Shown here piece after piece: positions 5,027 through 29,722 of a stretch of 64,000 nucleotides of DNA. The notes under the pieces were generated by a model that saw only the letters and a list, made by a program, of their open reading frames with translations, was not told where the DNA came from and searched no databases. The position numbers and the translations under genes were made by a program. Origin of the DNA: Dehalococcoidia bacterium (GTDB taxonomy: Bacteria > Chloroflexota > Dehalococcoidia > Lucifugimonadales > UBA3495); NCBI GenBank assembly GCA_002724585.1, contig PBPE01000036.1, forward strand, positions 30,502-94,501, given 5' to 3'. Every line of letters begins with the position of its first letter. Position 1 is the stretch's first letter.

Positions 5027-6853
5027 ATGTACGGCTATCACGGTAAAGTTCTGGTAGTCGATCTATCGAGTGAATCTTCCTGGTGGGATTATATTCCTGA
5101 GGATGTATACCGGAAATATTTGGGAGGTATTGGACTTGGTACGTACCTGCTATACAAATATTGTCCACCTAACGCTAATCCATTATCTGAAAATAACCCA
5201 CTCATATTTGCTACAAGTCCTTTTGTCGGGAGTAGGTTTACAACAACAAGTAAGTTTGCGGTATTGGCGAAGTCACCTTTGACGGGTTTTATCGGAGATT
5301 CTTTGTCATCTAGTCATTTTGCAGATGCTCTGAAAAATGCTTGCGGAGATGCTCTTATCCTATTAAATAGCGCGCAAAACTTTACACTTTTACATGTAGA
5401 CAACGGGAATCCAGTATTTATAGATGCCTCTGATCTAGTTGGGTTAAGTACATTTGACACGGAGAAATCTGTTAAGAGCTTGCTCGGAAATGCTGTCAGA
5501 GTAGCTTCTATTGGTCCAGCAGGTGAGAATCAGGTTTTGTATTCTAGTATAGCCAATGATGGCGGACGCCAGGCAGGAAGGTGTGGCTTGGGGGCCGTCA
5601 TGGGTTGCAAGAATATTAAGGCTTTAGCAATAAATGGTGATATCGAGACTCAGATATATGATCTCGAAGGAGTCGAACGTTACAGGCGAAAGATATCTGC
5701 TAAGAGCCTCGGGGAAGGTACTGATAAATATAGAAATATAGGCACGATGGCAAATGTTTCTTTATTTAATCGCTTCGGTATATTGCCAACAAAGAACTTT
5801 CAAAAAGCCACTTTCGAAAATGCAGATAAGATCAGCGGAGAGGAATTGGTTGAACGGCATTTTGAGAAGAATTCATATTGTTCAAATTGTACTATTGGAT
5901 GTGAAAAACTTCTTGCGACTACTGACAACGGCAAGAAAAGTATCGGGCGTATGGAATATGAGAGTTTATTCGCGTTTGGGCCACTCTGCAATATAGAGGA
6001 ACCTAATACTATAATCCGTGCGGCAAGATTATGTGATGAATTGGGCATGGATACTGTAAGTTGCGGTGCTACGATAGCGTGGGCTATGGAGTGTGACGAA
6101 AATGGCATTTCTATAGGTGATCAGTCTGACGATATGAAGCTTAGCTTTTCTGACTCTCAGGATTTGCTGAAAACGATATCTATGATAGGGCATCGGGAAG
6201 GGATCGGAGATTTACTCGCTTTGGGGAGCAAACGTGCCTCTGAAATAGTTGGCGGAGGATCTGATCACTGGGCGATGCATGTTAAAGGCCTAGAAATACC
6301 AGGCTACGAACCACGATCTCTAAAAACAATGGCACTAGGATTTGCGACAACCCCACGTGGAGCGTGTCATAATCGGTCCTCTGGATACGAAGCAGATTTG
6401 TCGGGAACAGTAGATAGGTTTAGAGCAGATGATAGTAGATCAGAGGTAGCAGTGGCTAGCGAAGATTTTACAGCTGTCTTGGATTCACTAATTTGGTGTA
6501 AATTTCTGCGCAAAGCCTTTGATGACTTTTACGCGGACTCTGCTCAGGCCTACGAATTGATTACAGGATTTGATATCACTCCGGATGAATTAAGATTGTG
6601 TGGGGAGCGAATAAATAATGCAAAAAAGATGTTTAACATTCGTGAAGGTTGGTGCCGTTCTGACGATACGCTTCCACATAGGATATTGAATGAACCTCTT
6701 CCTGATGGAGTAATGCCCGGGGTCTCATTGAGTCGAGAGGAACTCGACGCAATGGTCGAAGATTACTACGTTTCTCGTGGTTGGACTCATGATGGATTAA
6801 TACCGTTTTCAAAGATATGCGAGCTCGGTCTAGATGAATTGTTGGTAAATTGA
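5027..6853 (+). CDS. aor: Aldehyde:ferredoxin oxidoreductase family (tungsto/molybdopterin enzyme)
   Basis: 608 aa. The N-terminus YHGKVLVVDLS is typical of AOR. The [4Fe-4S] ligand pattern is CSNCTIGC (CxxCxxxC) plus a distal PRGACH cysteine. GGAGGG SD. Confidence 0.9.
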   Translation: MYGYHGKVLVVDLSSESSWWDYIPEDVYRKYLGGIGLGTYLLYKYCPPNANPLSENNPLIFATSPFVGSRFTTTSKFAVLAKSPLTGFIGDSLSSSHFADALKNACGDALILLNSAQNFTLLHVDNGNPVFIDASDLVGLSTFDTEKSVKSLLGNAVRVASIGPAGENQVLYSSIANDGGRQAGRCGLGAVMGCKNIKALAINGDIETQIYDLEGVERYRRKISAKSLGEGTDKYRNIGTMANVSLFNRFGILPTKNFQKATFENADKISGEELVERHFEKNSYCSNCTIGCEKLLATTDNGKKSIGRMEYESLFAFGPLCNIEEPNTIIRAARLCDELGMDTVSCGATIAWAMECDENGISIGDQSDDMKLSFSDSQDLLKTISMIGHREGIGDLLALGSKRASEIVGGGSDHWAMHVKGLEIPGYEPRSLKTMALGFATTPRGACHNRSSGYEADLSGTVDRFRADDSRSEVAVASEDFTAVLDSLIWCKFLRKAFDDFYADSAQAYELITGFDITPDELRLCGERINNAKKMFNIREGWCRSDDTLPHRILNEPLPDGVMPGVSLSREELDAMVEDYYVSRGWTHDGLIPFSKICELGLDELLVN

Positions 6854-6869
6854 AGTTTGCTGATCATAT

Positions 6870-7319
6870 ATGGCAGTGGTGATCATATTGGAACGTAAAG
6901 AATTAAGGTCAATTTTAACGTCAAGTTTCCCCCGTGAAAAAACTTATTTATTGCCCGTTCTTCATTATATTCAGGATGAATTTGATTTCATACCTGAGTG
7001 GGCCCTCCAAATAGTTAGTTGGCACTTGAGGGTTCCGGCTAGTGAAGTGTATGGTGCAGCAACGAGTTACTCAGATATAAGGTTTGTCAGTAATGACAAT
7101 CAAACGGTCAGAGTATGTTCAGGGTTGTCATGCTGGTATATGGGAGGAAAGGGTATATACGATCAGTTATGCTCTGACGTTGGTAACGAGGTATGTGTGG
7201 AAGTTACGAACTGTGCATTTACATGTTCTATGGCACCGCTAGTAGAAATAAGCGGACAATGGTTTTCTCGTTCCACAGTACAAAGCGTATTAAACCAGAT
7301 TCTTAGAAGGTCAGACTAA
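6870..7319 (+). CDS. NuoE/FdsG-like [2Fe-2S] thioredoxin-like ferredoxin subunit
   Basis: 149 aa with VCSGLSCWYMGG...NCAFTCSMAPL, the Cx4C...Cx3C cluster pattern of NuoE/HoxE/FdsG. Confidence 0.85.
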   Translation: MAVVIILERKELRSILTSSFPREKTYLLPVLHYIQDEFDFIPEWALQIVSWHLRVPASEVYGAATSYSDIRFVSNDNQTVRVCSGLSCWYMGGKGIYDQLCSDVGNEVCVEVTNCAFTCSMAPLVEISGQWFSRSTVQSVLNQILRRSD

Positions 7320-7320
7320 T

Positions 7321-8928
7321 ATGGTGAACTCGATGGTTTCATCTTATGAACGAATGGTTTTTGATGCTGCTACTAGGGTAGAGGAATATAAAAAGGATAG
7401 AACTAGGATATTAGTTCAGGTTGGTCAATGTAGTGTTTCTGTAGGAGCGTATTCATTAGCGTATGAGTTGCAGCGCAGTTGGAATGAACCAGGTATTGAT
7501 ATCGTAACAACGGGATGTGATGGTGCGTGTTTCGCGGCTCCGCAAGTGATAGTCCACCATACATCTGGAGATGTCTCTTACTTCCAGAATGTTGATCATG
7601 AGAATTTGGAAGTAATCCGGGATTCAGTGCTGAATAACGGACATACCAAGCCTAGTTTTGACCTAGAAAATTTCTTTTCGCCTCAGCATCTCAGCCTGAT
7701 GTCCGGTATCGGAGAAACAGATCCTAATTCTCTGGATGAATATTTGGCTATCGGGGGTTATAACGGTCTACTGAAAGCTTTATGCGTGACACCGACTGAA
7801 GTGATACTAGAAGTATCCCAATCAGGGTTGCTAGGCCGAGGAGGGGCGTATTTTCCTACATCGAGAAAATGGGAGACTGCGCGAAATACGGATTCACTAG
7901 AAAGATTTTTAATAGTAAATGCTGAGGAAGGTGAGCCAGGGCTATTCAAAGATAGGCATATATTGGAAGGTATGCCTCATCGATTGTTAGAGGGAGCGTT
8001 GATAGCTGCGTATGCTAGTGGATGTTCCAAGTGTTACGTTTATGTGAATGCTGAAGCTCATTTGTCAGTACAAAGACTTTCTGAAGCTATTAAATCTGCT
8101 CAGGATGCTGGTCTGATTGGAAACCATATATTAGGGTCTGACTTTAATTGTACTGTGGAATTGAGGACAGGAGCAGGAGGGTATGTTTGTGGGGAAGAAA
8201 CTACACTAATCAATACTATGGAAGGCGTTAGAAGAGAACCGAGACTAAAACCACCGTTTCCGGTTGAGGTAGGACTGTTTCAGAAACCAACTGTAATAAA
8301 TAACGTTGAAACATTAGCAAATGTTCCTGGTATTTTACTCAATGGGGCAGCGAGATTTGCTCAGATAGGCCTTCCAGAAGCCACAGGTACCAAACTATAT
8401 AGCCTTAGTGGTTCCGTATGCCGTCCGGGTCTTATCGAACTGCCTATGGGTGTCTCACTTAGTCAGATTGTAATCGATGTTGGAGGTGGAAGCCTTCCGG
8501 GGCGATCAGCTAAGCTATTGGCAGTTGGAGGGCCTTCCAGTGGAGTGTTGCCTATTTCAGAAATTGATACTCAAATGAAACCTGGATGGTTGCACAAGAG
8601 CGGTGTGGTGATGGGTGGAGGAGGAGTGATTGTGTTGGATGAAGCAGTCCCGGTACAGGACGTGGTTAGATCTCTTGCTCAGTACAATGCTTCAGAGTCT
8701 TGTGGTAAATGTACACCGTGTCGTGAAGGCACGCCTAGGGTGGTTGAAAAGTTATCGGGATTAGCCGACGACGATGATTCTATCCACATAATTCGTGATT
8801 TAGAGCTACTGTCTGATATTTTGGCTGGAGCTTCCTTGTGTGGATTAGGGCAGATGGCAGGAAATATAGTAAAAAGTGGTCTCTATTTCTTTAAAGATGA
8901 ATTAACTGGGCGCAATGAGAATGTGTGA
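7321..8928 (+). CDS. NuoF/FdsB-like NAD(H)-binding FMN/[4Fe-4S] diaphorase subunit
   Basis: 535 aa. Motifs are GRGGAYFPTSRKWE (FMN site), GAGGYVCGEETTLI (NADH site) and ESCGKCTPCREG...SLCGLG (N3-type 4Fe-4S). There is an N-terminal thioredoxin-like extension as in FdsB/HoxF. Confidence 0.9.
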   Translation: MVNSMVSSYERMVFDAATRVEEYKKDRTRILVQVGQCSVSVGAYSLAYELQRSWNEPGIDIVTTGCDGACFAAPQVIVHHTSGDVSYFQNVDHENLEVIRDSVLNNGHTKPSFDLENFFSPQHLSLMSGIGETDPNSLDEYLAIGGYNGLLKALCVTPTEVILEVSQSGLLGRGGAYFPTSRKWETARNTDSLERFLIVNAEEGEPGLFKDRHILEGMPHRLLEGALIAAYASGCSKCYVYVNAEAHLSVQRLSEAIKSAQDAGLIGNHILGSDFNCTVELRTGAGGYVCGEETTLINTMEGVRREPRLKPPFPVEVGLFQKPTVINNVETLANVPGILLNGAARFAQIGLPEATGTKLYSLSGSVCRPGLIELPMGVSLSQIVIDVGGGSLPGRSAKLLAVGGPSSGVLPISEIDTQMKPGWLHKSGVVMGGGGVIVLDEAVPVQDVVRSLAQYNASESCGKCTPCREGTPRVVEKLSGLADDDDSIHIIRDLELLSDILAGASLCGLGQMAGNIVKSGLYFFKDELTGRNENV

Positions 8929-8940
8929 AGATCGTTCGCA

Positions 8941-10086
8941 ATGGAACAGATAAATAATAAAGAGGTTAATATTATCGGAATGATTGGCGTTTCAAGAGAG
9001 GCGTCAATTAATTCTGGAGCCAGTTTAAGCGTTTTTGGCGGAGGTATAAATCCAGGTGGTGAAGTATTGCCTGGAATAGACCCTGACTATATAGCAGAAT
9101 TTGCTGAAACTCATGAGAAGTCCGGTTTTGATATGGTTTTAACAGGATATTCTTCCACTACTCCGGATGGGTTTGAAGTTGCAGGATTCGCCGCATCCAA
9201 AACTGAAAAGTTGGGTTATTTGATCGCTCATAGACCTGGTTTTATTGCACCTACATTGGCCGCCAGAAAAATCGCTACACTTGATCAACTTACGAAGGGT
9301 AGGATAGCCGTACATATTATATCTGGTGGTAGTGATATAGAGCAGAAACAGGATGGTGACTGGTTGGACCATGATTCTCGTTACAGGCGTACTGACGAAT
9401 ATATTTCAGTGCTTAAAGATATCTGGTCGGGAGTAGAACCATTAGACCGTGCAGGGGAATTTTATTCGTACACAGGTGCGATGAGCACGGTTTCTTGCTA
9501 TCAACAACCTCGTGTACCCTTGTTTTTTGGAGGAGCGTCCTCGGTCGCTCTAGAAATCGGGAGTAGACAGGCCGATTTCTATGCTTTTCTTGGCGAACCT
9601 CTAGAGGTTATTAAACAACGGATAATTGATATCAGAAAACGTGCTAGGCAGCACAACAACGATATCAGATTCAGCATATCCTTTCGGCCAATAATAGGAA
9701 ATACTGAATCTGAAGCATGGCAGAAGGCACATGACATATTGAATAAGGTTAAGATCGCAACTCAGGGAAGAATAGCACCAGGTCAATCTGCACGCGCGCA
9801 GTCAATGTTATCACAGAGGTTAGTTGACTTTGCAACGGAAAAAGATATATATGATCAGCGATTATGGATGCCTATCGCTTATGCTAGTGGTGGGTCCGGA
9901 AATACAACCTGTCTGGTAGGTACTGCAAATCAAGTAGTAGATTCGCTATTGGAATACTATAAAGCCGGATGCACCGCTTTTATACTGAGAGGATTCGATC
10001 CTCTTGTTGATGCACTCGAATATGGAAAAGACTTAATTCCTTTGTTACGTGAGCAGGTAGCTGCTGTTAACAAATTGAAATCATAA
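8941..10086 (+). CDS. SsuD/MsuD/SfnG-family FMNH2-dependent (alkane)sulfonate-type monooxygenase (LLM superfamily)
   Basis: 381 aa. It is collinear with E. coli SsuD as I recall that sequence, for example LIAHRPGFIAPTLAARKIATLDQLTKGRIAVHIISGG...DGDWLDHDSRYRRTDEY and QQPRVPLFFGGASS...FYAFLGEP. The subfamily assignment needs a phylogeny. Confidence 0.75.
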   Translation: MEQINNKEVNIIGMIGVSREASINSGASLSVFGGGINPGGEVLPGIDPDYIAEFAETHEKSGFDMVLTGYSSTTPDGFEVAGFAASKTEKLGYLIAHRPGFIAPTLAARKIATLDQLTKGRIAVHIISGGSDIEQKQDGDWLDHDSRYRRTDEYISVLKDIWSGVEPLDRAGEFYSYTGAMSTVSCYQQPRVPLFFGGASSVALEIGSRQADFYAFLGEPLEVIKQRIIDIRKRARQHNNDIRFSISFRPIIGNTESEAWQKAHDILNKVKIATQGRIAPGQSARAQSMLSQRLVDFATEKDIYDQRLWMPIAYASGGSGNTTCLVGTANQVVDSLLEYYKAGCTAFILRGFDPLVDALEYGKDLIPLLREQVAAVNKLKS

Positions 10087-10102
10087 GTAAGTGATTTAAT
10101 AT

Positions 10103-12868
10103 ATGACAATACATTTAATGCTCGATGGTCAGAAAGTTAGTATAAAGGAAGGACAATCAGTACTGGATGTTATCAACGTGTCTGGTACTTTTATCCCTCA
10201 ATTATGTAAAGATCCCGATATGAAACCGATTGGTGCTTGTCGGACATGCATCGTGGAAATAGATGGTATTCGGGGCATGCCAGCATCGTGTTCAACACCT
10301 GCCGTCAACGGTATGGTAGTTTCCACCAACAGCCCTAGTGTCCAACGGATTCGAAAGGGAATATTGGATTTAACTCTTGGTATGGTCGGTGATGGCACAG
10401 AATTAGGTTTGCTTCGACAGGCTTGTGACAAGTATGGCTTGTCTTCTGGCACTTGGGTGGCCAGATATAGGGAAGACACTGATACTAGCAATCCTGTTTT
10501 TGATATCAGTATGGGCGCTTGCATACTGTGCGCCAGATGCGTTAATGCTTGTCAGGATTCACATCAGTTCATTGGTGCCATAGATCATCTGGGGGCTGGG
10601 ACAGAAAGTAGGATTGGGACATTTATGGACAAACCTTTAATAGAGTCTATATGTACGACTTGCGGTCAATGTCTTTCCGTATGTCCAACAGGCGCGATAC
10701 ATCCCAAGTCAAGCTTGCCTAGGCAGAGATCTGGCAAAGAAGCATTACCGGTTTTGAATACCGTAGCTTCAACGTGTCCCTATTGTGGTGTGGGCTGCGG
10801 AATACAAATATCAACTGATGCGGATGAAAATATCGTTGAGGTTTATGATGATCCAGATAATTTGTCTAGCGTAGGGATGTTGTGTGTTAAGGGCAGGTTC
10901 GGTCAGGGATTCGTAACGCACCCCGATAGGTTGAAGGAACCATTAATTCGTCGAGATGGAGTTTTAAAGCAAGCCACATGGGACGACGCTTTAGATTTGA
11001 TCTCTAGTAAGTTGATTAACTACCGAGGTGATTCGTTCGGAACTCTCTGTTCTGCTAAGGCTACTAATGAAGATGGGTATGTGCAACAAAAGTTCACTCG
11101 CCTAGTAATGAAAAGCAATAATATAGATCATTGCACTCGTCTATGCCATTCCCCATCGGTTGAGGCAATGTTGGAGTCTTTAGGCAGTGGAGCGACGAGC
11201 AATTCGTACTCTGATTATGAAGATGCACGCTGTTTGGTAGTAATCGGTTGTGATCCAACTTCTAACCATCCTGTTGCGGCATCGAGGATGCGTAGGGCAA
11301 TAGTCGAACGGGGAGCTAAACTGATTGTCATAAACCCTCGTCGTATAGATATGTGTGATTATGCCGATATTTGGCTTCGGCCTATGCCAGGCACCGACGT
11401 CGCATTACTAAACGGCATCGCTAATGTCATCATAAAAGACGGGTTATTGGATAGTCCTTTTGTGATGGATAGGACTGAAGGTTATGATGATTGGTACAAG
11501 ATTATCGAAGAATATAACCCGAAAAAAGTCGAGGATATTACTGGTATAGCAGAGCAGGATCTGATTGATGCTGCTAGAACGTATGCGAACCCACCTCCGA
11601 CCCGGTCAGGTCCTGGATTAGAAACAGGAGGTTCCTGCCTAATCTGGGGCATGGGCATTACTCAGCACACTAACGGCACCGCAAACGCTCATGGATTACT
11701 CAACCTGGCTTTAGTTTCCGGGCAGATAGGGAAACGTGGGGCTGGCATATCGCCGCTAAGAGGTCAGAATAATGTGCAGGGATGTGGAGATTCAGGTTGT
11801 TTGCCCGATAATTTGCCTGGATATCAGGGTTTGCGCCCTGAATCATTGCGAAAGTTTGAAGATGCTTGGGGGGGGAATCTTCCGAGTACGAAAGGACTCG
11901 TCGTCACTGAAATGGTCGAATCGATTGGAAAATCCGACGGGATTAAGGCCATGTATATTACTGGTGAAAATCCCCTGCTGAGTGAGCCAGATCTCAATCA
12001 TGCAGAAAAAATGTTTGCGCAATTAGATTTTCTTGTCGTTCAAGATATTTTTCTTCACGAAACTGCAGCAATAGCTGATGTGGTATTACCGGCTGTTAGT
12101 TATGCTGAGAAAGATGGGACATTTACCAATAGTGAGAGAAGGGTACAAAGAATTAGAAAGGCGATCAGTCCACTAGGTAAAGGGAGGGCAGATTGGGAAA
12201 TAATTTCTGAATTGGCTGTGAGAGTTAGTGAGAAGTTGGGGCTTGGTTTAGAACACCAGTTCCTTTATGAAAACCCAGAGCAAATATTTGCAGAAATGTC
12301 TGGCCTAACACCGATAATAGCTGGTATAAACTATCAGCGCATTCAGAAATCTGGTATACAATGGCCATGCCCTGACGTTGGTCACCCAGGGACGGAATTT
12401 TTGTATGAAGAGACATTCCCCAGAGGGGATCGTGCTAAATTCGTGGCTTTTGATCAGGGACCTGTTGCTGCTGAGCGTCCCAATAAACGTTTCCCAATCA
12501 TGCTTAATACTGGCAGGATACTTTACCACTGGCATGGAGGGACCATTACTCGTAGGGTAGTTAATTTAATGGCTAGAGCCCCAGAATTGCAGGTAGCAGT
12601 AAGCCCTGCGGATGCTGAGAAGTACGGCCTGTTGCATGGGGAAAAAATTAAAGTAACTTCAAGACGTGGGGTGCTGACCGGGGTAGCCTTGGTTACTGAC
12701 AGAATGCGGGACGGAGAAATCTTTATCCCATTTGTTAAGCTGTCTGAATCGGCAGCTAATTTCTTAACTAATTCTGCTTATGATCCCATGTCTAAGATAC
12801 CTGAGTACAAGGTCTGCGCTGTCAGTATTGAACCCGCATATCAGGGAATATCGGAAACTTCTAGCTAG
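10103..12868 (+). CDS. fdsA: NAD-linked formate dehydrogenase alpha subunit (FdsA/NuoG-like fusion), Cys-type
   Basis: 921 aa. It has an N-terminal NuoG-type 2Fe-2S (CKDPD...CRTC...C) and two ferredoxin CxxCxxCxxxC motifs. It also has a MopB 4Fe-4S (CPYCGVGC...C) and the active-site motif CTRLCHSPSV (Cys-His, TGC at 11144-11146). LRGQNNVQG contains the conserved Arg. Confidence 0.92.
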   Translation: MTIHLMLDGQKVSIKEGQSVLDVINVSGTFIPQLCKDPDMKPIGACRTCIVEIDGIRGMPASCSTPAVNGMVVSTNSPSVQRIRKGILDLTLGMVGDGTELGLLRQACDKYGLSSGTWVARYREDTDTSNPVFDISMGACILCARCVNACQDSHQFIGAIDHLGAGTESRIGTFMDKPLIESICTTCGQCLSVCPTGAIHPKSSLPRQRSGKEALPVLNTVASTCPYCGVGCGIQISTDADENIVEVYDDPDNLSSVGMLCVKGRFGQGFVTHPDRLKEPLIRRDGVLKQATWDDALDLISSKLINYRGDSFGTLCSAKATNEDGYVQQKFTRLVMKSNNIDHCTRLCHSPSVEAMLESLGSGATSNSYSDYEDARCLVVIGCDPTSNHPVAASRMRRAIVERGAKLIVINPRRIDMCDYADIWLRPMPGTDVALLNGIANVIIKDGLLDSPFVMDRTEGYDDWYKIIEEYNPKKVEDITGIAEQDLIDAARTYANPPPTRSGPGLETGGSCLIWGMGITQHTNGTANAHGLLNLALVSGQIGKRGAGISPLRGQNNVQGCGDSGCLPDNLPGYQGLRPESLRKFEDAWGGNLPSTKGLVVTEMVESIGKSDGIKAMYITGENPLLSEPDLNHAEKMFAQLDFLVVQDIFLHETAAIADVVLPAVSYAEKDGTFTNSERRVQRIRKAISPLGKGRADWEIISELAVRVSEKLGLGLEHQFLYENPEQIFAEMSGLTPIIAGINYQRIQKSGIQWPCPDVGHPGTEFLYEETFPRGDRAKFVAFDQGPVAAERPNKRFPIMLNTGRILYHWHGGTITRRVVNLMARAPELQVAVSPADAEKYGLLHGEKIKVTSRRGVLTGVALVTDRMRDGEIFIPFVKLSESAANFLTNSAYDPMSKIPEYKVCAVSIEPAYQGISETSS

Positions 12869-14088
12869 TCCCCTACTGCAGCTGGGGAACTAGTATTGAC
12901 CTTCTGGGGCCACCATGGATCAGGATATTCAGCCCATAGGTTTTTCACGGCAGGCATCACTTCATTGGCGAACAATGTAGTGTTTTTGAGGGTTAGTTCT
13001 TTCGGCATACTGCCTATGTGTAATAAACACATCAAGTGTCCAACTCTGAGCATCTTTGCCGCTTCTACTAATTGTTCACGAACAGTTTCAGGACTGCCAG
13101 CAATTACATGCCCCTGCTCAATAAAATCTTTCCATTCTAGTTCTCCTGCTGCTTTCTGAGCTTCTTCACCTATTTGAGGTCGAATCGATTCTCTGATGGA
13201 ATTCAGCGATCTATAGCCAGGAGCTTCAGCATAAGGAGGGTGTATTCGTAACATTTTGCGGTAGAAGTATTTTACATGCTCTGAATATTCTTGTTCTGCA
13301 GATCGATCAGTCTCTGATACACACACAAGTTGTAAAAAGCCGAGCCTATGAGGATTGTCATCCAGCCCTCTCTCTGATACGCGGTCCCAGAATCCGTTGA
13401 CTACTCTTAATCCTCTGAGATAACCAAAATAACTTAGGTAGCAATAGACGTAGTCCCTATCTAATACCCAGTCCCATGTTTCTAGGCTGCCACTTCCAGG
13501 TATCCAAACTGGTGGATGGGGTTGCTGAAGTGGACGAGGCCATATGTTTACATAACGGAGCTGATTGTATTTACCATTGAATATGAAGGGTTCACGGTTA
13601 CTCCATGCTTTCATGATCAGGTCATGAGCTTCAGAGTGTTTTTCTCGTAACGTAATGGGAGTTTGGCCATATGAAAGTGTAGTGTCCATAGATGTTCCGA
13701 CAGGGAAACCTGCGACTAGACGGCCCTTGCTCATAATATCAAGCATAGCCATCTCTTCGGCCACTCTGACTGGCGGTTGATATAGTGCTAAGCTGTTTCC
13801 TAACACGATCAGGGCGCCGTTTGAAGTAGTTCTGGATAGGACTGAAGCAATCAAGTTTGGCGAAGGCATTAATCCATAAGCGTTATTATGGTGTTCGTTG
13901 ACGCAAACGCCATCGAATCCGACTGTGTCTGCAAATTGGAGCTCTTCCAAGTAGTCATCATAATGATCTTGGCATCTTTCGGGATCAAATAGACTATTGG
14001 GAGCATCTACCCATGCACTGCGATAATTATCCTCAAAATCACTAGGAAGACCTTGGTACGGCATAAGGTGGAAGAAACAGACTTTCAT
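12865..14088 (-). CDS. Luciferase-like flavin-dependent monooxygenase (LLM) paralogue
   Basis: 407 aa. MKVCFFHLMPY..., FDGVCVNEHH and RLVAGFPVG fit the LLM TIM-barrel pattern. GGAGAT SD. Its stop codon overlaps the fdsA stop. Confidence 0.85.
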   Translation of the reverse strand: MKVCFFHLMPYQGLPSDFEDNYRSAWVDAPNSLFDPERCQDHYDDYLEELQFADTVGFDGVCVNEHHNNAYGLMPSPNLIASVLSRTTSNGALIVLGNSLALYQPPVRVAEEMAMLDIMSKGRLVAGFPVGTSMDTTLSYGQTPITLREKHSEAHDLIMKAWSNREPFIFNGKYNQLRYVNIWPRPLQQPHPPVWIPGSGSLETWDWVLDRDYVYCYLSYFGYLRGLRVVNGFWDRVSERGLDDNPHRLGFLQLVCVSETDRSAEQEYSEHVKYFYRKMLRIHPPYAEAPGYRSLNSIRESIRPQIGEEAQKAAGELEWKDFIEQGHVIAGSPETVREQLVEAAKMLRVGHLMCLLHIGSMPKELTLKNTTLFANEVMPAVKNLWAEYPDPWWPQKVNTSSPAAVGD

Positions 14089-14154
14089 ATTATTGTATCT
14101 CCAATTTGCTAGTTGAGAATCATAGCATACTAATCAATGTCTCTGTAGTTTAGT

Positions 14155-15798
14155 CTACTCGAGCACAAACCCTTCGTATCCTTTGGCAGCGCATTCGTCT
14201 CGTATTGCCCTCATTGCTGGCGCGCTGTCTGGACTGGTTAACAATACTCGGGCTTTTCCGGGTATATTCGCTCCTACATACCAAGAATTTGCCTCTGCTC
14301 CTTGTGTACGCAAAATTTTAGCCCCATCTTCATTGACGTGCCTAACCCAAGCATCTTCAGATTCTATGGTTGGGTGGATGCGATTATAATTCTTGTCCTG
14401 TACCCAGCGAATGGTTTTTGATACCCAGTCGATCAGTGCTTCCGCTGCTCTTGGAAAATTGCCTACCGAAGCTGAGTTGACTGTAAATAGATTTGGGAAT
14501 CCCGCGCTAGTCACGCCCATAAACGTGCGAGGGCCGCCTGAAAATTTTTCGCTAAGTATCTCGCCTCCAATACCTTGAATGTTGATTTTATTCAGCGAGC
14601 CTGTAACCGCATCATACCCTGTGGCGAATATTAATACATCCAGTTCGTATTCGGATTCTGATGTGAGAACTCCTTTGGAAGTTATCCGTTCTATCGGAGC
14701 TGTTTTCACATCCACCAACAATACATTCTCTTGGTTGTACACTTCATAGTATCCGCTTTCACATGGAAGTCTTTTCGATCCAAACATGTGGTCTTTTGGA
14801 ACCAGCATTTCCGCGATAATCGGATCATAGACACGCTCTCGGATCTTATTGCGCACAAATTCTGCATAGTCTTCATTTGCGGGACCTGGCAACATGACAT
14901 CATAGAAATTTGCGAGCCATTTAGCAAATCCACCCTGTAGCCACAGCCTTTCGTATTGCTGTCTACGTTCTTCGGCTGAGACATCCATCGCTGATCGCGG
15001 ATCGAATTTGTGCATAAATGACCCTGCGCTTTCGCTGCACATACGGAATATTTCAGGGTAATTAGCTTTTATTTGCTTCTGAGTTTCAGCGTCAATCGTA
15101 CTATTTCTTAAAGGTGCACAGAAGTTAGGGGTCCTCTGAAATACTGTTAAATGACCCACTTCTTTTGCTATTTCGGTGATCAGTTGCACGCCGCTAGCGC
15201 CTGTTCCAATTACCCCCACTCGCTTCCCGGATAGGTTGATTCCTTCCTTAGGCCATCGGCCTGTGTGGCACCAAGTTCCTTGGAAACTATGGATACCTTC
15301 GAAATTTGGTACGTAGCCTGCGGATAATATTCCTACAGCGGTGATCAAGAACTTTCCTTTGGCTTTGTACCCGTCTTCTATTGATATTTCCCATAAATTC
15401 TCGTTTTCGTTAAACTTTGCAGAGGATACTCGGGAACTGAGCCGTATGTGCTTACGGAGGTCGAATTTGTCAGCGACGTAGTTCAAATAGCGTTCATTTT
15501 CTGGTTGAGCAGAATAATGCTCTTTCCAGTCCCACTCTTGGAGAAGCTCTTCTGAGAAAGAATATCCGTAGGTATAACTCTCGGAATCAAACCGACAACC
15601 TGGGTACCTGTTCCAATACCAGGTGCCCCCAACTCCATCACCTTCTTCGAATGATTGGACAGTTAATCCGAGCTCTCGAAGCTTATATATTGCGTATAGC
15701 CCGGTAACGCCAGCACCGATGACTATTACATCATAGTAATTCATGTCGGAACTATAATGAGTAGTCGGCTCAGATGATGTTTGTTGAGATGTGCTCAT
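14155..15798 (-). CDS. Type I Baeyer-Villiger monooxygenase (cyclohexanone-monooxygenase-like, FAD/NADPH)
   Basis: 547 aa with the BVMO fingerprint FQGTWCHTGRWP (FxGxxxHxxxWP). The two Rossmann motifs are VIGAGVTG and VIGTGASG. Confidence 0.9.
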   Translation of the reverse strand: MSTSQQTSSEPTTHYSSDMNYYDVIVIGAGVTGLYAIYKLRELGLTVQSFEEGDGVGGTWYWNRYPGCRFDSESYTYGYSFSEELLQEWDWKEHYSAQPENERYLNYVADKFDLRKHIRLSSRVSSAKFNENENLWEISIEDGYKAKGKFLITAVGILSAGYVPNFEGIHSFQGTWCHTGRWPKEGINLSGKRVGVIGTGASGVQLITEIAKEVGHLTVFQRTPNFCAPLRNSTIDAETQKQIKANYPEIFRMCSESAGSFMHKFDPRSAMDVSAEERRQQYERLWLQGGFAKWLANFYDVMLPGPANEDYAEFVRNKIRERVYDPIIAEMLVPKDHMFGSKRLPCESGYYEVYNQENVLLVDVKTAPIERITSKGVLTSESEYELDVLIFATGYDAVTGSLNKINIQGIGGEILSEKFSGGPRTFMGVTSAGFPNLFTVNSASVGNFPRAAEALIDWVSKTIRWVQDKNYNRIHPTIESEDAWVRHVNEDGAKILRTQGAEANSWYVGANIPGKARVLLTSPDSAPAMRAIRDECAAKGYEGFVLE

Positions 15799-15825
15799 AG
15801 GATTCTCCGAGTATATAACTTTGTC

Positions 15826-16602
15826 TTATCTACCTTTCCAATTAGGCTTCCGTTTTTCTGCAAATGCTAAAGGTCCCTCTTTAGAATCTTCCGTTGTAAG
15901 CAATTGGTCATACATATGATAAGTCAGTGAAGATATATCTTGAATAGACATGTTTAAGCTTTTGTATGCTAGTTCTTTAAAATATTGTACTGCAAGCGGA
16001 GCATTTTCCGCTATTTGCTGGGCCATAGTAATAGCTTCGGGCATAACCTGGTCAGAAGGTACTACTTTATTCAAGAATCCCATGTCGTACGCTCTCTGGG
16101 CTGTGACAGGTTGTGCTGTCATGCATAGCTCTAATACTGCAGATAGCGGAATCATCTTACTTAATATAGTGCCAAACGGTGGTAATAAGCTCCATTTTGT
16201 TTCAGTAATACCGAGTTTTGCTTCTTCGGAGGCTATTCTCAGATCACATAACTGAGCTATGGACCAACCTCCGGCTAGCGCGTAACCGTTAACTGCAGCG
16301 ATTAAAGGTTTCCAAGTTTGGGGCCACATATAAGGGCTGTCTGGATACATGCTGTCTCTAGCTTTCGCCTGCTTCCCTTCAGCATTGTCATTAGCTCTTT
16401 CTTTAAGGTCACGTCCTGCACAAAATGCGCGTCCGGAGCCAGTAATAATCCCAACATATGCAGTCGGATCGGCGTCAAATTCTGTGATTGCGTCCGCTAG
16501 TTCTTTACGAAGCTGGCGGTTAATGGAATTCAGTGAATCAGGTCTGTTAAGAGTCATGATGACTATATTTTCTTGTTTCTCGTATAAGATTGTTTCCGCC
16601 AT
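15826..16602 (-). CDS. Enoyl-CoA hydratase/isomerase (crotonase) family protein
   Basis: 258 aa with IITGSGRAFCAGRDL and NGYALAGG, the oxyanion-hole segments typical of crotonases. Confidence 0.9.
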   Translation of the reverse strand: MAETILYEKQENIVIMTLNRPDSLNSINRQLRKELADAITEFDADPTAYVGIITGSGRAFCAGRDLKERANDNAEGKQAKARDSMYPDSPYMWPQTWKPLIAAVNGYALAGGWSIAQLCDLRIASEEAKLGITETKWSLLPPFGTILSKMIPLSAVLELCMTAQPVTAQRAYDMGFLNKVVPSDQVMPEAITMAQQIAENAPLAVQYFKELAYKSLNMSIQDISSLTYHMYDQLLTTEDSKEGPLAFAEKRKPNWKGR

Positions 16603-16626
16603 ATAATTTATCTCTCCCTTATTGTT

Positions 16627-16977
16627 TTAAGCATAATGACCTAGGTACGTTCCACCTATCACGTGTATGTGCCCGTGATTTTGGCTTTGCAAGCCATCAT
16701 ATCCGAAGTTTGAAAGAATACGGAATCCATTGGGAGCGTACATGGCTCCGAGGTTTACAGCGGTTGTTCCCATGCGCTCCATGATTCCACTGGTCCAAAG
16801 CTCGATTTGGGTTAGGTGTTGTTTGGGCATCACTAAAAGCATTACTGGGACCCATGTCAACTTGTTGACTATGGCTATGATGTCATTGTCTATATATCTT
16901 ATTCGTGCCGGCTCCGCCCCATTTATTATTTCGCAAAAAACACAGTATGGTGGTTTGTTCAATGTTGGCACTTCCAT
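16627..16977 (-). CDS. HIT (histidine triad) family protein
   Basis: 116 aa with the C-terminal histidine triad NHGHIHVIGG. Confidence 0.8.
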   Translation of the reverse strand: MEVPTLNKPPYCVFCEIINGAEPARIRYIDNDIIAIVNKLTWVPVMLLVMPKQHLTQIELWTSGIMERMGTTAVNLGAMYAPNGFRILSNFGYDGLQSQNHGHIHVIGGTYLGHYA

Positions 16978-16992
16978 ATTTTTAAAGATTTA

Positions 16993-17829
16993 TCAAATTA
17001 CTTCTATTGAAGCGAATATTGTTTTTCCGTTAGTCTCATACAGATACCCAGATTTTTCTGTCGTTCCGTGACCGAGAATTAATAACCAGTTCTCTTCTCG
17101 TGCTTTCTTTAGCCAGTATCTTTTTGCATCAAATGTCTGAGTGGGGTATAAGTCGTAACTAGTGATGTACGGTACTGGTATTTGCTGCGGTATCATTAGT
17201 ATGTCGCCAAGGCATGCTATCTTCTCCCCATCTGACTCAAAATACACCATTTGATGTCCATCTGTATGGCCTCCGGTGTGCCTTACCCAAAGTCTTGAGA
17301 TGATTTCAGTATCTCCATTTAATAATTCTAACTGGTTTGTTTGGTTTAAGGGCAAGAAATCTTCCTCTATATAGGCGGTACGAGTGCGTTCATTAGTGCA
17401 GGTTGCTTCTTGCCAATCTCGTTGCTGGACTAAGTAGGTCGCTTTTGGGAATACCGGGACTAGCTTACCGCCTTCATATGTAGTACAGCCACCCACATGA
17501 TCGAAATGTAAATGTGTAAGAATGACATAATCTATGTCGTTCGGGTATAAACCATAATATTCAAGATTCTTTACCAGATTCCCCCCGCGCATATGAAATC
17601 TGGTTTGAGTGATTTTATTATGTTTGTTGCCGATGCCTGTATCTATTAGAATATTTAAATTGTTGGTCTGAATTAATAAGCAATTTAGAGCGATTTCCAC
17701 ACGATTTAGGCGATCGGGCTTATGAGTTTTGCTCCATATGGCTTTTGGCACTATCCCGAATATGCTTCCGCCATCCATTCGTAAGCTTCCGTCACTTATT
17801 ATGTGTATGTCAGATCTTCCTATCTTCAT
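16993..17829 (-). CDS. Metallo-beta-lactamase-fold hydrolase (lactonase/esterase-like)
   Basis: 278 aa with the HxHxDH motif LTHLHFDHVGG plus distal His and Asp ligands. Confidence 0.85.
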   Translation of the reverse strand: MKIGRSDIHIISDGSLRMDGGSIFGIVPKAIWSKTHKPDRLNRVEIALNCLLIQTNNLNILIDTGIGNKHNKITQTRFHMRGGNLVKNLEYYGLYPNDIDYVILTHLHFDHVGGCTTYEGGKLVPVFPKATYLVQQRDWQEATCTNERTRTAYIEEDFLPLNQTNQLELLNGDTEIISRLWVRHTGGHTDGHQMVYFESDGEKIACLGDILMIPQQIPVPYITSYDLYPTQTFDAKRYWLKKAREENWLLILGHGTTEKSGYLYETNGKTIFASIEVI

Positions 17830-17896
17830 GCAAGAGGAGCTTATAAGTACGGTATTATGTTGTCAATTGTATTAATCCACTAGATTTTCTACTATT

Positions 17897-18468: not shown

Positions 18469-18804
18469 ATGACTGAAGAACCACAAAGCGTTGTGTACTG
18501 GCCGAGGGTAAAAGAGATTCTAGATAATATAATGGAACGATGGAAAGAGCGCTGGGAAAGGGAACCGTATCCTGGTATACACGAATATTACTGGGAAACC
18601 GCTAAAGATTTGCAGGAGTCTGTTTTGAATGGATATAGATCGATTGAACCGGGCGTAGCAGGTAAAGACACCCACTTGGTCAAGTCGTTGGCTAGAGGAT
18701 GTGGAACTTTTGGAAAAATGCCGCTTCGGGGTCCATTTGTAAGTAGAGACGAAGTAAATGAGATAATTGTATGGATTGATTCTGGCATGCCTGAAGGCCC
18801 TTAA
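18469..18804 (+). CDS. Hypothetical protein (111 aa) with a PSCyt-like C-terminal segment but no CxxCH
   Basis: ORF with TGGAG SD. The C-terminal PGVAGKDTHLVKSL...GKMPLRGPFVSRDEVNEIIVWIDSGMPE resembles, from memory, the distal half of the planctomycete cytochrome c domain. Confidence 0.5.
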   Translation: MTEEPQSVVYWPRVKEILDNIMERWKERWEREPYPGIHEYYWETAKDLQESVLNGYRSIEPGVAGKDTHLVKSLARGCGTFGKMPLRGPFVSRDEVNEIIVWIDSGMPEGP

Positions 18805-18893: not shown

Positions 18894-19895
18894 CTAGATT
18901 AGGACCGGTTCAGTGTTCTTAGTATATATTTGCAGTCTGCCTCTAGTTGAATCTAAGACCACTACCTGCCCATCTGTATTTACTTTCACAGCGGTAGGAT
19001 GCGAGAAATTCTTATCAAAATCGCTACTGTGTGTTATAGCGAGTTGGCGTTGTCTTATCATATCTGGATTGGATATCATTTTATCTTTGCCCCACTGGGA
19101 TAACATATGATCCCCAGTTAGCTGAGTTATGAACCGTCCATCTGGAGCTAAGACTTGTATCCTGTCGTTCAACCAGTCAGACACGTAAATGTCGCCATCT
19201 TTATCTACGGACACACTGTTAGGACGATTAAACTGTCCTACGGCAGTTCCTGGTGTTCCGAATGTAGCCTGCCATTTCCCTGACTGATCAAATTGTTGAA
19301 TCCGGTCGTTTCTCCAGTCAGTTACGTATATATTTCCTGAGCTGTCCAGTCCAATTCCCCAAGGCATATTAAATTGTCCTGACCCATCTCCTGATTCGCC
19401 AAAGCTGCTTTCGAATTGGCCATCTAGACTAAATTTTTGCACCCTGTTGTTTCTGCTGTCAGACACGTAGATACTACTACCTGAAATAGCGAGACCGGCG
19501 GGACCGTCTAATTGTCCTTGTGCCGATCCTTGTTCACCCCATTTGCTAACAAATTCGCCATTACTATCGAACACTGTTATTCGATTGAGCCATTCATCGG
19601 AGATGTAAATGTTCTCGTCCTTATCTAAAGCGATTGACGAAGGCCAGATAAACTGACCGTCTCCTTCACCGTAAGAACCAAACTCAGTGACGTATTCTTC
19701 GTTTAATGTGCAGACGGTTACTCTAACACCGTCTGGACGATTTTCATAAGCCCGATTAATTACGTAAACGATGTCATCGGCGCCCAATGCCATGTCTACA
19801 GGATTTCGAAATCCTGTACCTGCAAACTCGTTTCTTCCAACTGAATGACTGTAAGAAAATGTTCTGTCGGTGAGACCAAATAAATGGGTGCTCAT
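18894..19895 (-). CDS. NHL-repeat beta-propeller protein
   Basis: 333 aa with six recurring blades of about 47 aa (..G.F..P.gia.d..GniYVsD..N.RIQ.F...G). No N-terminal signal peptide. Confidence 0.85.
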   Translation of the reverse strand: MSTHLFGLTDRTFSYSHSVGRNEFAGTGFRNPVDMALGADDIVYVINRAYENRPDGVRVTVCTLNEEYVTEFGSYGEGDGQFIWPSSIALDKDENIYISDEWLNRITVFDSNGEFVSKWGEQGSAQGQLDGPAGLAISGSSIYVSDSRNNRVQKFSLDGQFESSFGESGDGSGQFNMPWGIGLDSSGNIYVTDWRNDRIQQFDQSGKWQATFGTPGTAVGQFNRPNSVSVDKDGDIYVSDWLNDRIQVLAPDGRFITQLTGDHMLSQWGKDKMISNPDMIRQRQLAITHSSDFDKNFSHPTAVKVNTDGQVVVLDSTRGRLQIYTKNTEPVLI

Positions 19896-19978
19896 TATTG
19901 TTACCTCTTATTCTATTTGTATGGCAGAGCGAGATGTTGATCCTTTCTCACTTGGCCAATCGGTGTGCCGTTTTCTGT

Positions 19979-21133
19979 TTATAAGAAGTTGACTTTAGTA
20001 AAGTTTCCAGCTATCGGAACTGGATCTATATGAAGCCAGTCTTCGAGTATAGTGCTGTAGACCTCACGGAAATCCATATTGTGCTCTAAGTTTCCACCTT
20101 CGATCAATTTATCCTGATCCAATGATGGGTAGTCACCGTAGAAACCACCTTTAACGTGTTCCCCGATAGCGAATGCTACGCTTGCAGCACCATGATCTGT
20201 CCCTGATCCATTGTCACCCACACGACGACCGAATTCTGAGAACATAAGCAACGTTACATTATCCATTGCGTCATGTCCTCGTAGATCATCAATGAAAGTT
20301 TCAACATTTGCTGATACGTCTGTCCATAATCCCGAATGTGCTTGAGCTTGACTAGCATGAGTATCGAAGCCGTTGTACGGAGAGGTGGTATAGAGCACCC
20401 TTGTCCCGAAACCAGCTAGATGAGTCTGGGCAATATTTTTCATGTATTGTCCAACCGCGGTTGCAGAATATTCGACGTTTGAACTGTACATTCCTGGTGC
20501 GGTAGCTAAGATATCTGCCCCTTTTAGCGCATCAGTACCTGTTCGTCTAATGTAATCCAATGCGTATCCACTACCAATCGTGGGACTGTACATTCGTCCA
20601 AATACATCTAATGCTTCTGTTCGTTGGTCTTCTCCTTGAATTCCTGTGAGCAATCCGTATGTCTCGAGGTCACCCACTGAAGCCACTGGAACACCTTCCT
20701 TAGCAAGGGCTCTGGGTAGACCTCTTCCGAAGTTAACACCAGTAAGCACGTTTTCTGCGCTTGGATCTAACTCTTTAATTGCTTGGCCTAACCAACCCTC
20801 ATTGCCGATTTTGTCGGGTTCGCAGGTGTGCCAAATATCCATGGATCGGAAGTGGGAGTAGCTAGGATTGGGGTAACCGATACCTAGGAAGATGGCCATT
20901 TTACCTTCTTCCCAAAATCTAATTAATGGTCCCATGCTAGGGTGGAATCCATAGCCTGTCTCTTTTCCTGTTGCTGGGTCCTTTAGAGGGATAATCTGTT
21001 CTTCAGGAATCCCTAGATTTGGACGAAAATCTCTATACAAACCATTATTAAATGGGATGACGGTATTTAGCCCGTCATTTCCGCCGGATAGAGAAAGTAC
21101 CGCTAATACGTTGTCTTTTTTATTAGAGACCAT
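19979..21133 (-). CDS. DUF1501 (sulfatase-fold) family protein
   Basis: 384 aa with SLSGGNDGLNTVIP near the N-terminus and FSEFGRR...NGSGTDHG near the C-terminus, both DUF1501 hallmarks. GGAGG SD. No Tat leader. Confidence 0.85.
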   Translation of the reverse strand: MVSNKKDNVLAVLSLSGGNDGLNTVIPFNNGLYRDFRPNLGIPEEQIIPLKDPATGKETGYGFHPSMGPLIRFWEEGKMAIFLGIGYPNPSYSHFRSMDIWHTCEPDKIGNEGWLGQAIKELDPSAENVLTGVNFGRGLPRALAKEGVPVASVGDLETYGLLTGIQGEDQRTEALDVFGRMYSPTIGSGYALDYIRRTGTDALKGADILATAPGMYSSNVEYSATAVGQYMKNIAQTHLAGFGTRVLYTTSPYNGFDTHASQAQAHSGLWTDVSANVETFIDDLRGHDAMDNVTLLMFSEFGRRVGDNGSGTDHGAASVAFAIGEHVKGGFYGDYPSLDQDKLIEGGNLEHNMDFREVYSTILEDWLHIDPVPIAGNFTKVNFL

Positions 21134-21163
21134 TACTACCTCCGTTAATTTCTTGTCTAATTT

Positions 21164-27214: not shown

Positions 27215-27339
27215 AGTATCTTCTTCTCCCAGGAATATTTGACGTTACATAAGCTGGTGCGTCATGCTTGACTATGTGCATCGGGTATTCTAACTAGTTT
27301 GTCCCACTTTGGCTACATGCGCGCGACTACCTAGGCACT

Positions 27340-28371: not shown

Positions 28372-28555
28372 AAATCATCTCCCGTAATTTCACGTTATAT
28401 TTAGAATTGATGTTCTCTCTTGATGGGTTAAGTGAATACTATCTCCTGTTGTGGAAGAGGTCAAAAAGAGCATCAGATGTCCGATTGACCCACTCTTTGG
28501 TATGCAATACACTCCCATTGGATTTAACGGCAAGATGCCATAGAAGGTGAAACTT

Positions 28556-29698: not shown

Positions 29699-29722
29699 TG
29701 GGAATATTATGGAGATTTTGAC

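Follow-up and report, generated by a model that had tools for sequence, protein, structure and literature searches.

Bacteria of the SAR202 group are abundant in the dark ocean and have been proposed to oxidise recalcitrant dissolved organic matter by means of expanded monooxygenase families, and for this group no enzyme or operon has yet been tied to a substrate. Here we describe a five-gene array on the minus strand of a 64,000-nucleotide stretch of DNA from a Dehalococcoidia bacterium (contig PBPE01000036.1 of assembly GCA_002724585.1, positions 30,502 to 94,501), which at its full length we call the window. The array encodes a metallo-beta-lactamase (MBL)-fold hydrolase, a histidine-triad (HIT) protein, a crotonase-superfamily protein, and a type I Baeyer-Villiger monooxygenase (BVMO), as well as a luciferase-like monooxygenase (LLM). 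On balance we favour the view that it is a co-oriented, probably co-transcribed catabolic array on the core chromosome of a marine bacterium of the SAR202 type, put together stepwise as a mosaic of oxygenases and hydrolases around a constant pair of HIT and crotonase genes. The genes and features of the array are as follows.

16993-17829, minus strand: MBL-fold metallo-hydrolase, 278 amino acids, the first gene of the array, as given in the open reading frame (ORF) listing.
16627-16977, minus strand: HIT (Hint-type histidine-triad) protein, 116 amino acids.
15826-16602, minus strand: crotonase-superfamily protein, 258 amino acids.
14155-15798, minus strand: type I BVMO, 547 amino acids.
12865-14088, minus strand: LLM, 407 amino acids.
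17830-17896, 67 nt: divergent intergenic region between the MBL gene and a gene for a MoCF-domain (Mog/MoaB-like) protein, the probable promoter region of the array.

A sequence-only reading of this DNA had placed five genes on one strand, separated by 15, 24, 27 and 66 nt, and these spacings and the gene coordinates agree with the ORF listing. The identities it assigned are right, each protein scoring above its Pfam gathering threshold, and the motifs it singled out (the BVMO fingerprint, two Rossmann motifs and the HxHxDH site of the MBL protein) are all intact in the translations. Ribosome-binding sites of the GGAG type lie ahead of the crotonase, BVMO and LLM genes. Terminator-like sites were no more frequent than expected by chance in a consensus scan (5, against 4.8 in shuffled sequence), and the shared strand, the short gaps and the lack of above-chance terminators together fit a single transcription unit, which the array probably forms. 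Its promoter would lie in 17830-17896, the sole non-coding gap upstream of the array, which holds a minus-strand TTGACA hexamer; the consensus promoter scan gave 9 promoter-like sites, not above shuffled expectation, so that this assignment is no more than probable. At the far end of the array the stop codon of the LLM gene and that of the convergent gene for formate dehydrogenase alpha (FdhA) overlap by 4 nt (12865-12868), leaving no space for a terminator between the two transcription units.

The window as a whole is core chromosome, carrying genes for DnaK, topoisomerase I, EF-P, ClpXP, trigger factor, FtsA/FtsZ, ribonucleotide reductase and cytochrome c maturation, along with three LLM genes in total (that of the array and two more) and several dehydrogenases. 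Identical (100%) LLM and HIT proteins are on record from a Dehalococcoidia metagenome-assembled genome, and an LLM that is 96% identical carries the label SAR202 cluster bacterium.

Judged by its sequence, the BVMO is a full-length type I enzyme (a class B flavoprotein). It belongs to the FMO-like/Pyr_redox families of Pfam, with scores above the gathering threshold, and aligns with phenylacetone monooxygenase (PAMO) at 542 bits over residues 22-546, ahead of steroid monooxygenase (STMO; 497 bits), OTEMO (492 bits) and cyclohexanone monooxygenases (CHMO; 430-459 bits). The fingerprint FxGxxxHxxxW[P/D] is present as FQGTWCHTGRWP at residue 172, the second motif [A/G]GxWxxxx[F/Y]P[G/M]xxxD as GGTWYWNRYPGCRFD at residue 57, and the two Rossmann GxGxxG motifs as GAGVTG at residue 28 and GTGASG at residue 198. 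The catalytic arginine (R337 of PAMO; 'fgskRl' vs 'fgtkRl') and aspartate (D66; 'RFD' vs 'RCD') are likewise kept. An exact match to the BVMO of the window was not found in the assembly index.

The MBL protein scores 78 bits against Pfam Lactamase_B, and its best NCBIfam model is that of the YtnP lactonase (NF047919; 208.7 bits), with residues 2-256 aligning to model positions 1-255. This is below the equivalog cut-off of 425 bits, and by NCBI's rule the protein is not a member of the YtnP family. Further lactonase profiles match it with lower scores (AidB 77, 4-pyridoxolactonase 60 and AiiA 59 bits; AttM also matches), against 19 bits for glyoxalase II (GloB) and 16 bits for RNase Z. Its best PDB match is the uncharacterised structure 3esh (165 bits), followed by lactonase and methyl-parathion-hydrolase structures, and its metal site, HLHFDH (HxHxDH) at residue 106, is kept in all orthologs. 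These profile scores place the protein with the lactonases and not with RNase Z or glyoxalase II. The sequence-only reading had itself named a grouping with RNases or glyoxalase II as a point on which it would fall, and on this point it came through, at 209 bits for YtnP and 16-19 bits for the other two. The public gene call of an identical MBL protein starts 17 codons further downstream and gives 261 amino acids. The longer, 278-residue start is favoured because the orthologs have 278-294 residues and the YtnP model aligns from residue 2.

The HIT protein (Pfam PF01230, 38.3 bits against a cut-off of 21.5 bits) has HIT/Hint1 proteins as its best PDB matches, and it carries the triad HGHIHVI at residue 101 and a CxxC motif (CVFC) at residue 12, both of which are kept in all orthologs; these features assign it to the Hint branch of the HIT superfamily. 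The crotonase scores 205 bits against Pfam ECH_1, and its best NCBIfam model, EchA19, reaches 238 bits, under the cut-off of 400 bits. Alignment to PDB 3r0o and 3qxi places its AGGWSIA segment at the GGG(S/T)ELA of canonical hydratases, so that the first catalytic glutamate (E144 of rat ECH) is replaced by serine and the second (E164; ITETKWS) is kept. The position of the first glutamate is serine in all 13 crotonase orthologs examined (62-98% identical) except one, in locus L062, which has alanine; the second glutamate is kept. The loss of the first glutamate suggests that the protein is probably not a plain enoyl-CoA hydratase. A literature search for a HIT/crotonase gene pair returned nothing relevant.

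The LLM scores 111 bits against Pfam Bac_luciferase and passes no NCBIfam subfamily cut-off. Its best PDB sequence matches, RslO1 (58 bits) and 2i7g (57 bits), cover the N-terminal half only, and that to 3,6-diketocamphane monooxygenase (PDB 4uwm) is of only 26 bits. A structure model was built from 14 homologs, and in a Foldseek search with this model 4uwm ranked ninth (template-modelling scores 0.62/0.69) among luciferases and other LLMs; the model matched 2i7g, luciferases, 8k74, 4uwm and RslO1 about equally, and F420 enzymes slightly lower. By these matches the protein, a possible type II BVMO, stands no nearer to the members of that group than to FMN-dependent LLMs of other kinds. Its orthologs in SAR202-type loci are 73-96% identical.

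Conservation of the array was examined from four anchors, the BVMO, MBL, LLM and HIT genes, and the BVMO-anchored scan, over one genome per species, returned 51 loci (individual loci are referred to here by number). From the BVMO anchor the five-gene set was found only in L001, where the BVMO is 93% identical, with part of the set in L048. Homologs of the BVMO that are 70-74% identical, in four other Dehalococcoidia and one other genome, have unrelated neighbours (a glyoxalase, a pentapeptide-repeat protein, an MFS transporter, a DDE transposase, an M24 peptidase and a CDGSH protein). These neighbours, one of them a transposase, point to the BVMO as a putative movable gene. From the MBL anchor the full array and both flanks are retained at 68-82% MBL identity (L052/53, L054), and at 55-63% identity (L056-L061) the order is MBL-HIT-crotonase-alpha/beta hydrolase-LLM, the other genes being clear orthologs (HIT 72-78%, crotonase 84-87% and LLM 81-88% identical). 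In L059-61 this order is retained despite a different upstream flank. The LLM anchor brought out loci in which HIT-crotonase-hydrolase-LLM stand without an MBL gene (L062-64 and L069), and the HIT anchor loci in which the MoCF gene adjoins HIT-crotonase-cupin (L148-151) or HIT-crotonase and then opposite-strand genes (L152). In all, the MBL gene is missing from L062-64, L068, L069 and L148-152. The public call for HIT in L054 is a 51-amino-acid ORF only; tblastn shows an intact full-length HIT gene at 5929-6276 (91% identical), and the short call is a gene-calling artefact and not a loss of HIT.

HIT adjoins crotonase in every SAR202-type locus examined, and the position behind the crotonase occurs in at least five states: nothing, cupin, hydrolase-LLM, hydrolase-X-LLM and BVMO-LLM, the last only in the window, L001, L048, L052/53 and L054. 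This comparison identifies HIT-crotonase as the apparent constant unit, the position behind it as a variable slot and the MBL gene as an optional insertion in front. As a complete set the five genes are confined to a shallow clade made up of the window, L001, L052/53 and L054, and the conserved membership that the sequence-only reading had itself asked for extends no further: more distant relatives have an alpha/beta hydrolase in place of the BVMO, lack the MBL gene or have HIT-crotonase alone. The HIT gene, which the sequence-only reading had set apart as the odd member, is on the contrary, together with the crotonase gene, the most constant part of the locus across relatives.

The polarity of these changes was examined in a neighbour-joining tree of concatenated HIT, crotonase and LLM sequences with 300 bootstraps. 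Every bootstrap (100%) unites the BVMO-bearing loci, and their clade is the sister group of hydrolase-bearing L056-58 (96%), with the likewise hydrolase-bearing L059, L069 and L062 outside; a tree of the LLM alone agrees. By parsimony this topology implies a single, recent replacement of the hydrolase by the BVMO, preceded by the gain of the MBL gene. A stepwise history can be proposed on this basis. The oldest and most constant part would be the Hint-type HIT gene followed by the non-canonical crotonase gene, and the ancestral slot of the group would have held an alpha/beta-fold hydrolase of the esterase/lactonase type together with the LLM. In a later step the MBL-fold, lactonase-type hydrolase would have been inserted upstream of HIT, and finally a type I BVMO resembling PAMO and STMO would have taken the place of the alpha/beta hydrolase within the shallow clade to which the window belongs. 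The swap itself is unmarked by any hydrolase remnant, flanking repeat or compositional anomaly: a search of the whole window for traces of the displaced alpha/beta hydrolase gave nothing, the BVMO gene has no inverted repeats at its flanks and only short direct repeats at chance level, and its base composition (GC 0.455, GC at third codon positions 0.427) shows no anomaly relative to its neighbours, which gives no compositional hint of a foreign origin.

The junction between the MBL and HIT genes is tight, with a gap of 15 nt in the window and a 4-nt overlap of the MBL stop and HIT start in two hydrolase-bearing relatives (L057, 7867-7870; L058, 7882-7885), where the overlap suggests translational coupling. 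It is formally conceivable that the two proteins form a nucleotide-directed pair, a phosphodiesterase of the Apyc1 or RNase type with a HIT nucleotide hydrolase, which would have nothing to do with the oxygenases. HIT proteins do act on nucleotide conjugates, and precomputed weak or faint Apyc1 (PF23023) tags are attached to homologs of the MBL protein. An assignment as Apyc1 or another cyclic-nucleotide phosphodiesterase was nevertheless rejected, the Apyc1 match reaching 11.5 bits against a cut-off of 50 and being confined to the HxHxDH motif. The scores for RNase Z and aCPSF1 are 16-24 bits, where the YtnP lactonase family reaches 209, and HIT occurs without MBL in many relatives. We consider such a pair highly improbable.

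The wider family of the LLM suggests a pairing of oxygenase and hydrolase. Where LLM relatives are 55-65% identical, 42 of the 58 metagenome loci that could be evaluated carry a same-strand alpha/beta hydrolase immediately downstream; among the 80 soil and marine metagenome loci with such an LLM, MBL and BVMO occur in none and HIT in 2. In cultured bacteria, plasmid-borne relatives (39-46% identical) are grouped with a hydrolase and a flavin reductase. The loci with LLM relatives include L155 (8001-11831), L157 (5376-8178), L154 (8001-12793) and L156 (5222-10683). The occurrence of the LLM with a hydrolase and a flavin reductase in other bacteria suggests a two-component FMNH2-dependent oxygenase whose product needs a hydrolase, that is, a family that would follow a logic of two-component oxygenase plus esterase. 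The LLM-hydrolase-flavin reductase module is uncharacterised and widespread.

Among these plasmids, that of Rhodococcus rhodochrous has an LLM-alpha/beta hydrolase-flavin reductase group beside catA (catechol 1,2-dioxygenase) and that of Mycobacterium branderi a group of the same composition; on a Caballeronia plasmid the flavin reductase lies upstream of the LLM and hydrolase, and maleylacetate reductase is close by. As a whole such groups adjoin catechol 1,2-dioxygenase, maleylacetate reductase or the riboflavin biosynthesis gene ribBA. Neorhizobium petrolearium has paired alpha/beta hydrolase-LLM and reductase-LLM-alpha/beta hydrolase units, with an NAD(P)H-dependent oxidoreductase. In the hydroxyacetophenone route a BVMO and an esterase act in turn and a diphenol results, and the ring-cleavage genes beside the plasmid LLMs may be said to resemble this route.

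A second and independent association comes from a Binatia genome and a related genome, which have an operon BVMO-MBL-P450-LLM-nitronate-monooxygenase-family protein (NMO)-amidohydrolase (amidohydrolase_2) (L005, 26-7582; L021, 8001-15540). Its gaps are of 7-15 nt with one exception of 266 nt, and a crotonase and a short-chain dehydrogenase/reductase (SDR) gene lie on the opposite strand. The Binatia BVMO is 63-70% and the LLM 45% identical to the counterparts in the window. The MBL protein of the operon resembles the AttM lactonase (163 bits) and is only 26-28% identical to that of the window, which indicates that the combination of BVMO, lactonase-type MBL and LLM arose twice. The Binatia operon looks like a fuller oxidative pathway for a substrate of the terpenoid, steroid or alkane type.

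Taken together, these comparisons allow a functional reading of the five genes. The BVMO, with NADPH and FAD, would turn ketones into esters or lactones, and the LLM would probably catalyse the same conversion, acting as the oxygenase of a two-component FMNH2 system with its reductase encoded at another site. Opening or cleavage of these esters or lactones would fall to the MBL hydrolase, in place of the lost alpha/beta hydrolase. The crotonase may act further downstream on a CoA-thioester as an enzyme of the isomerase or hydrolase type, and not as a classical hydratase, and the HIT protein, as the product of a backbone gene, would at most clear acyl-adenylates. As substrates, open-chain, aryl or steroid-type methyl ketones have at least as good a claim as alicyclic ketones. 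Of the sequence ketone to lactone to hydroxy-acid to CoA-level processing that had been proposed from the DNA alone, the part from ketone through ester or lactone to hydrolysis is plausible, and has independent comparative support in the Binatia operon; a fixed five-step pathway is not supported. The gene order, with the hydrolase first and the oxygenases last, differs from the proposed order of reactions, which also counts against a fixed pathway.

Several observations weigh against reading the locus as a catabolic array. The MBL gene was present before the BVMO arrived and so was not recruited for the product of the BVMO. The cluster contains no gene for a CoA ligase, a flavin reductase, a ketone-forming or alcohol dehydrogenase, a regulator or a transporter. 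No homolog of a flavin reductase was found in the whole window or in the SAR202-type loci, and the partner of the LLM may be encoded elsewhere in the genome. The model of the LLM is mediocre (predicted local distance difference test score 66.5), and its fold matches are generic LLM barrels that tell neither FMN from F420 dependence nor type II BVMOs from luciferases and other LLMs. The hydrolase upstream of the LLM in SAR202 is only 23-25% identical to the partner hydrolase of the LLM elsewhere. Genes for Uma2, PEPcase_2, an opposite-strand aspartyl protease and unknown ORFs lie between crotonase, hydrolase and LLM in relatives, so that strict co-transcription is not required. Finally, a block of ~15 kb (DUF1800-DUF1501-NHL / orf-MoCF / array / formate dehydrogenase) is syntenic among these relatives, and part of the conservation is thus plain inheritance and not selection for a pathway.

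The last two observations would equally be expected if the genes were functionally unrelated neighbours, with HIT-crotonase lying beside a recombination-prone slot that holds members of the expanded oxidoreductase and hydrolase families of SAR202 and with the shared orientation and short gaps being due to genome compaction. At least five states of the slot and the position of the array in a core chromosome with three LLM genes and several dehydrogenases point the same way. It is less easy to see, on such a view, why the order MBL-HIT-crotonase-hydrolase-LLM should survive a changed upstream flank, why BVMO, lactonase-type MBL and LLM should recur as a tight operon in a distant phylum, why the pairing of LLM and hydrolase should be conserved across phyla, or why MBL and HIT should overlap by 4 nt in two relatives. 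We therefore think chance neighbourhood unlikely, while giving it real weight, and retain the catabolic array as the preferred reading.

At the other extreme, the five genes could make up a dedicated pathway for opening alicyclic ketone rings, as the sequence-only reading had it, in which the BVMO forms a lactone, the MBL protein hydrolyses it, the crotonase acts at the CoA level and the LLM serves as a second, type II BVMO. The tight spacing on one strand, the intact BVMO, the lactonase-type affinity of the MBL protein and the Binatia BVMO-MBL-LLM operon all speak for such a pathway, and the camphor pathway is a precedent for joining LLM-type and type I BVMOs with CoA-level steps. The general hypothesis on SAR202 metabolism (Landry et al., 2017, PMC5395668) is also in its favour. 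However, the five-gene set is confined to a shallow clade in which the BVMO replaced a hydrolase in an older array, and homologs of this BVMO elsewhere have unrelated neighbours. An alicyclic substrate loses ground because PAMO and STMO, which yield open-chain esters, are nearest to this BVMO among characterised enzymes, and not CHMO or CPMO. The crotonase step falters in turn, as the protein is non-canonical and lacks one catalytic glutamate, the first. Genes for a CoA ligase, a dehydrogenase and a flavin reductase are missing from the cluster, and the LLM reaches only 26 bits to 3,6-diketocamphane monooxygenase. A dedicated ring-opening pathway is accordingly improbable, and the corrected picture is one in which HIT and crotonase form the constant core, the BVMO is a newcomer and nothing yet specifies alicyclic substrates.

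Other parts of the window also encode oxidoreductases. Convergent with the array, a plus-strand array (5027-12868) encodes an aldehyde:ferredoxin oxidoreductase (5027-6853), a NuoF-like flavoprotein (7321-8928), an SsuD-like LLM (8941-10086; 211 bits to alkanesulfonate monooxygenase, below the cut-off) and FdhA (10103-12868), which has an N-terminal 2Fe-2S/NuoG-like module and passes the Fdh-alpha equivalog. The position of an LLM gene between the NuoF-like and FdhA genes is unusual and is kept in L001, L048 and L062 (63-89% identical), and an LLM gene occupies the corresponding position in L052 and L054. A second small oxidoreductase cluster (26462-30517) consists of the third LLM gene (28547-29698) followed by an SDR gene (29723-30517), with a Zn-dependent alcohol dehydrogenase (27340-28371) and an FAA-family hydrolase (26462-27214) on the opposite strand from this LLM; it is possible that the genes of this cluster supply ketone substrates. 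Next to the MoCF gene, an ORF of 111 amino acids (18469-18804, plus strand) has no Pfam or NCBIfam match and is kept beside that gene, at 72-99% identity, in every SAR202-type locus examined (L001, L052-L058, L062-64, L068 and L069). Beyond it, a minus-strand trio (18894-22582) encoding DUF1800, DUF1501 and an NHL-repeat beta-propeller is syntenic with the MoCF/HIT/crotonase block in all related loci.

The locus offers a compact and testable set of three enzymes, the type I BVMO, the lactonase-type MBL protein and the LLM. The natural exchange of hydrolase and BVMO tells cassette genes from backbone genes, and illustrates how cassettes are exchanged while their place in the chromosome stays fixed. 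A broader proposal, which we regard as rather doubtful, is that the LLM belongs to an extensive family, so far uncharacterised, whose members would be two-component oxygenases of the Baeyer-Villiger type that depend on FMNH2 and work with a dedicated hydrolase, spread from SAR202 to Binatia, soil bacteria and the catabolic plasmids of Rhodococcus, Mycobacterium and Caballeronia, and that the SAR202 locus is a plug-in site for cassette exchange behind HIT and a crotonase with a Glu-to-Ser replacement. Were this true, such exchange would provide a concrete genomic mechanism for diversifying the attack of SAR202 on recalcitrant carbon.

Clusters that combine a BVMO with a hydrolase are known for cyclohexanone (chnB/chnC), 4-hydroxyacetophenone (hapE/hapD) and methyl ethyl ketone (mekA/mekB), and the array resembles them in having a type I BVMO beside a hydrolase for its ester or lactone product. 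It differs from them in that its hydrolase is of the MBL fold (YtnP-like) and not of the alpha/beta fold, the alpha/beta hydrolase having been displaced by the BVMO itself, and in that it lacks dehydrogenase genes and has three extra genes, for HIT, the non-canonical crotonase and the LLM. The MBL protein shares with YtnP/AiiA-type lactonases the HxHxDH site and a full-length alignment to the YtnP model, but it falls below the 425-bit equivalog cut-off and its context is catabolic and not one of quorum quenching. The camphor pathway of Pseudomonas putida likewise brings together LLM-type (type II) BVMOs, the 2,5- and 3,6-diketocamphane monooxygenases, a type I BVMO (OTEMO) and CoA-level chemistry; in contrast, the LLM of the array has a fold match to the 3,6-enzyme no better than that to luciferases, besides its weak 26-bit score, and the window has neither a CoA ligase nor a flavin reductase. 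A comparable combination of oxygenases occurs in the pdc cluster of Caenibius tardaugens, which we liken to the array by gene content: there a type I BVMO lies together with an LLM, each turns progesterone into testosterone acetate by Baeyer-Villiger oxidation, the two differ in specificity and the flavin reductase is encoded elsewhere (PMC12239570). Unlike the array, this cluster includes two regulators and lacks MBL, HIT and crotonase genes; its BVMO and LLM were not among the matches listed in a BVMO search of the plasmid collection.

The hypothesis that SAR202 bacteria oxidise recalcitrant dissolved organic matter rests on paralog expansions of LLM/FMNO proteins and describes no operons (Landry et al., 2017, PMC5395668; Saw et al., 2020, PMC6946804), and a literature search for characterised SAR202 monooxygenases returned nothing relevant. 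As had been said of the locus, it fits this hypothesis, sharing the organism group and the idea that lactones or esters made by monooxygenases are opened by lactonases or esterases and then further oxidised; such an operon is not part of what was published. To this scheme the locus adds a type I BVMO and a specific arrangement of genes. Among known systems, it is best described as an ordinary cluster for breaking down oxidised carbon compounds, one that is still evolving and is a variant of the known clusters of a BVMO with a hydrolase.

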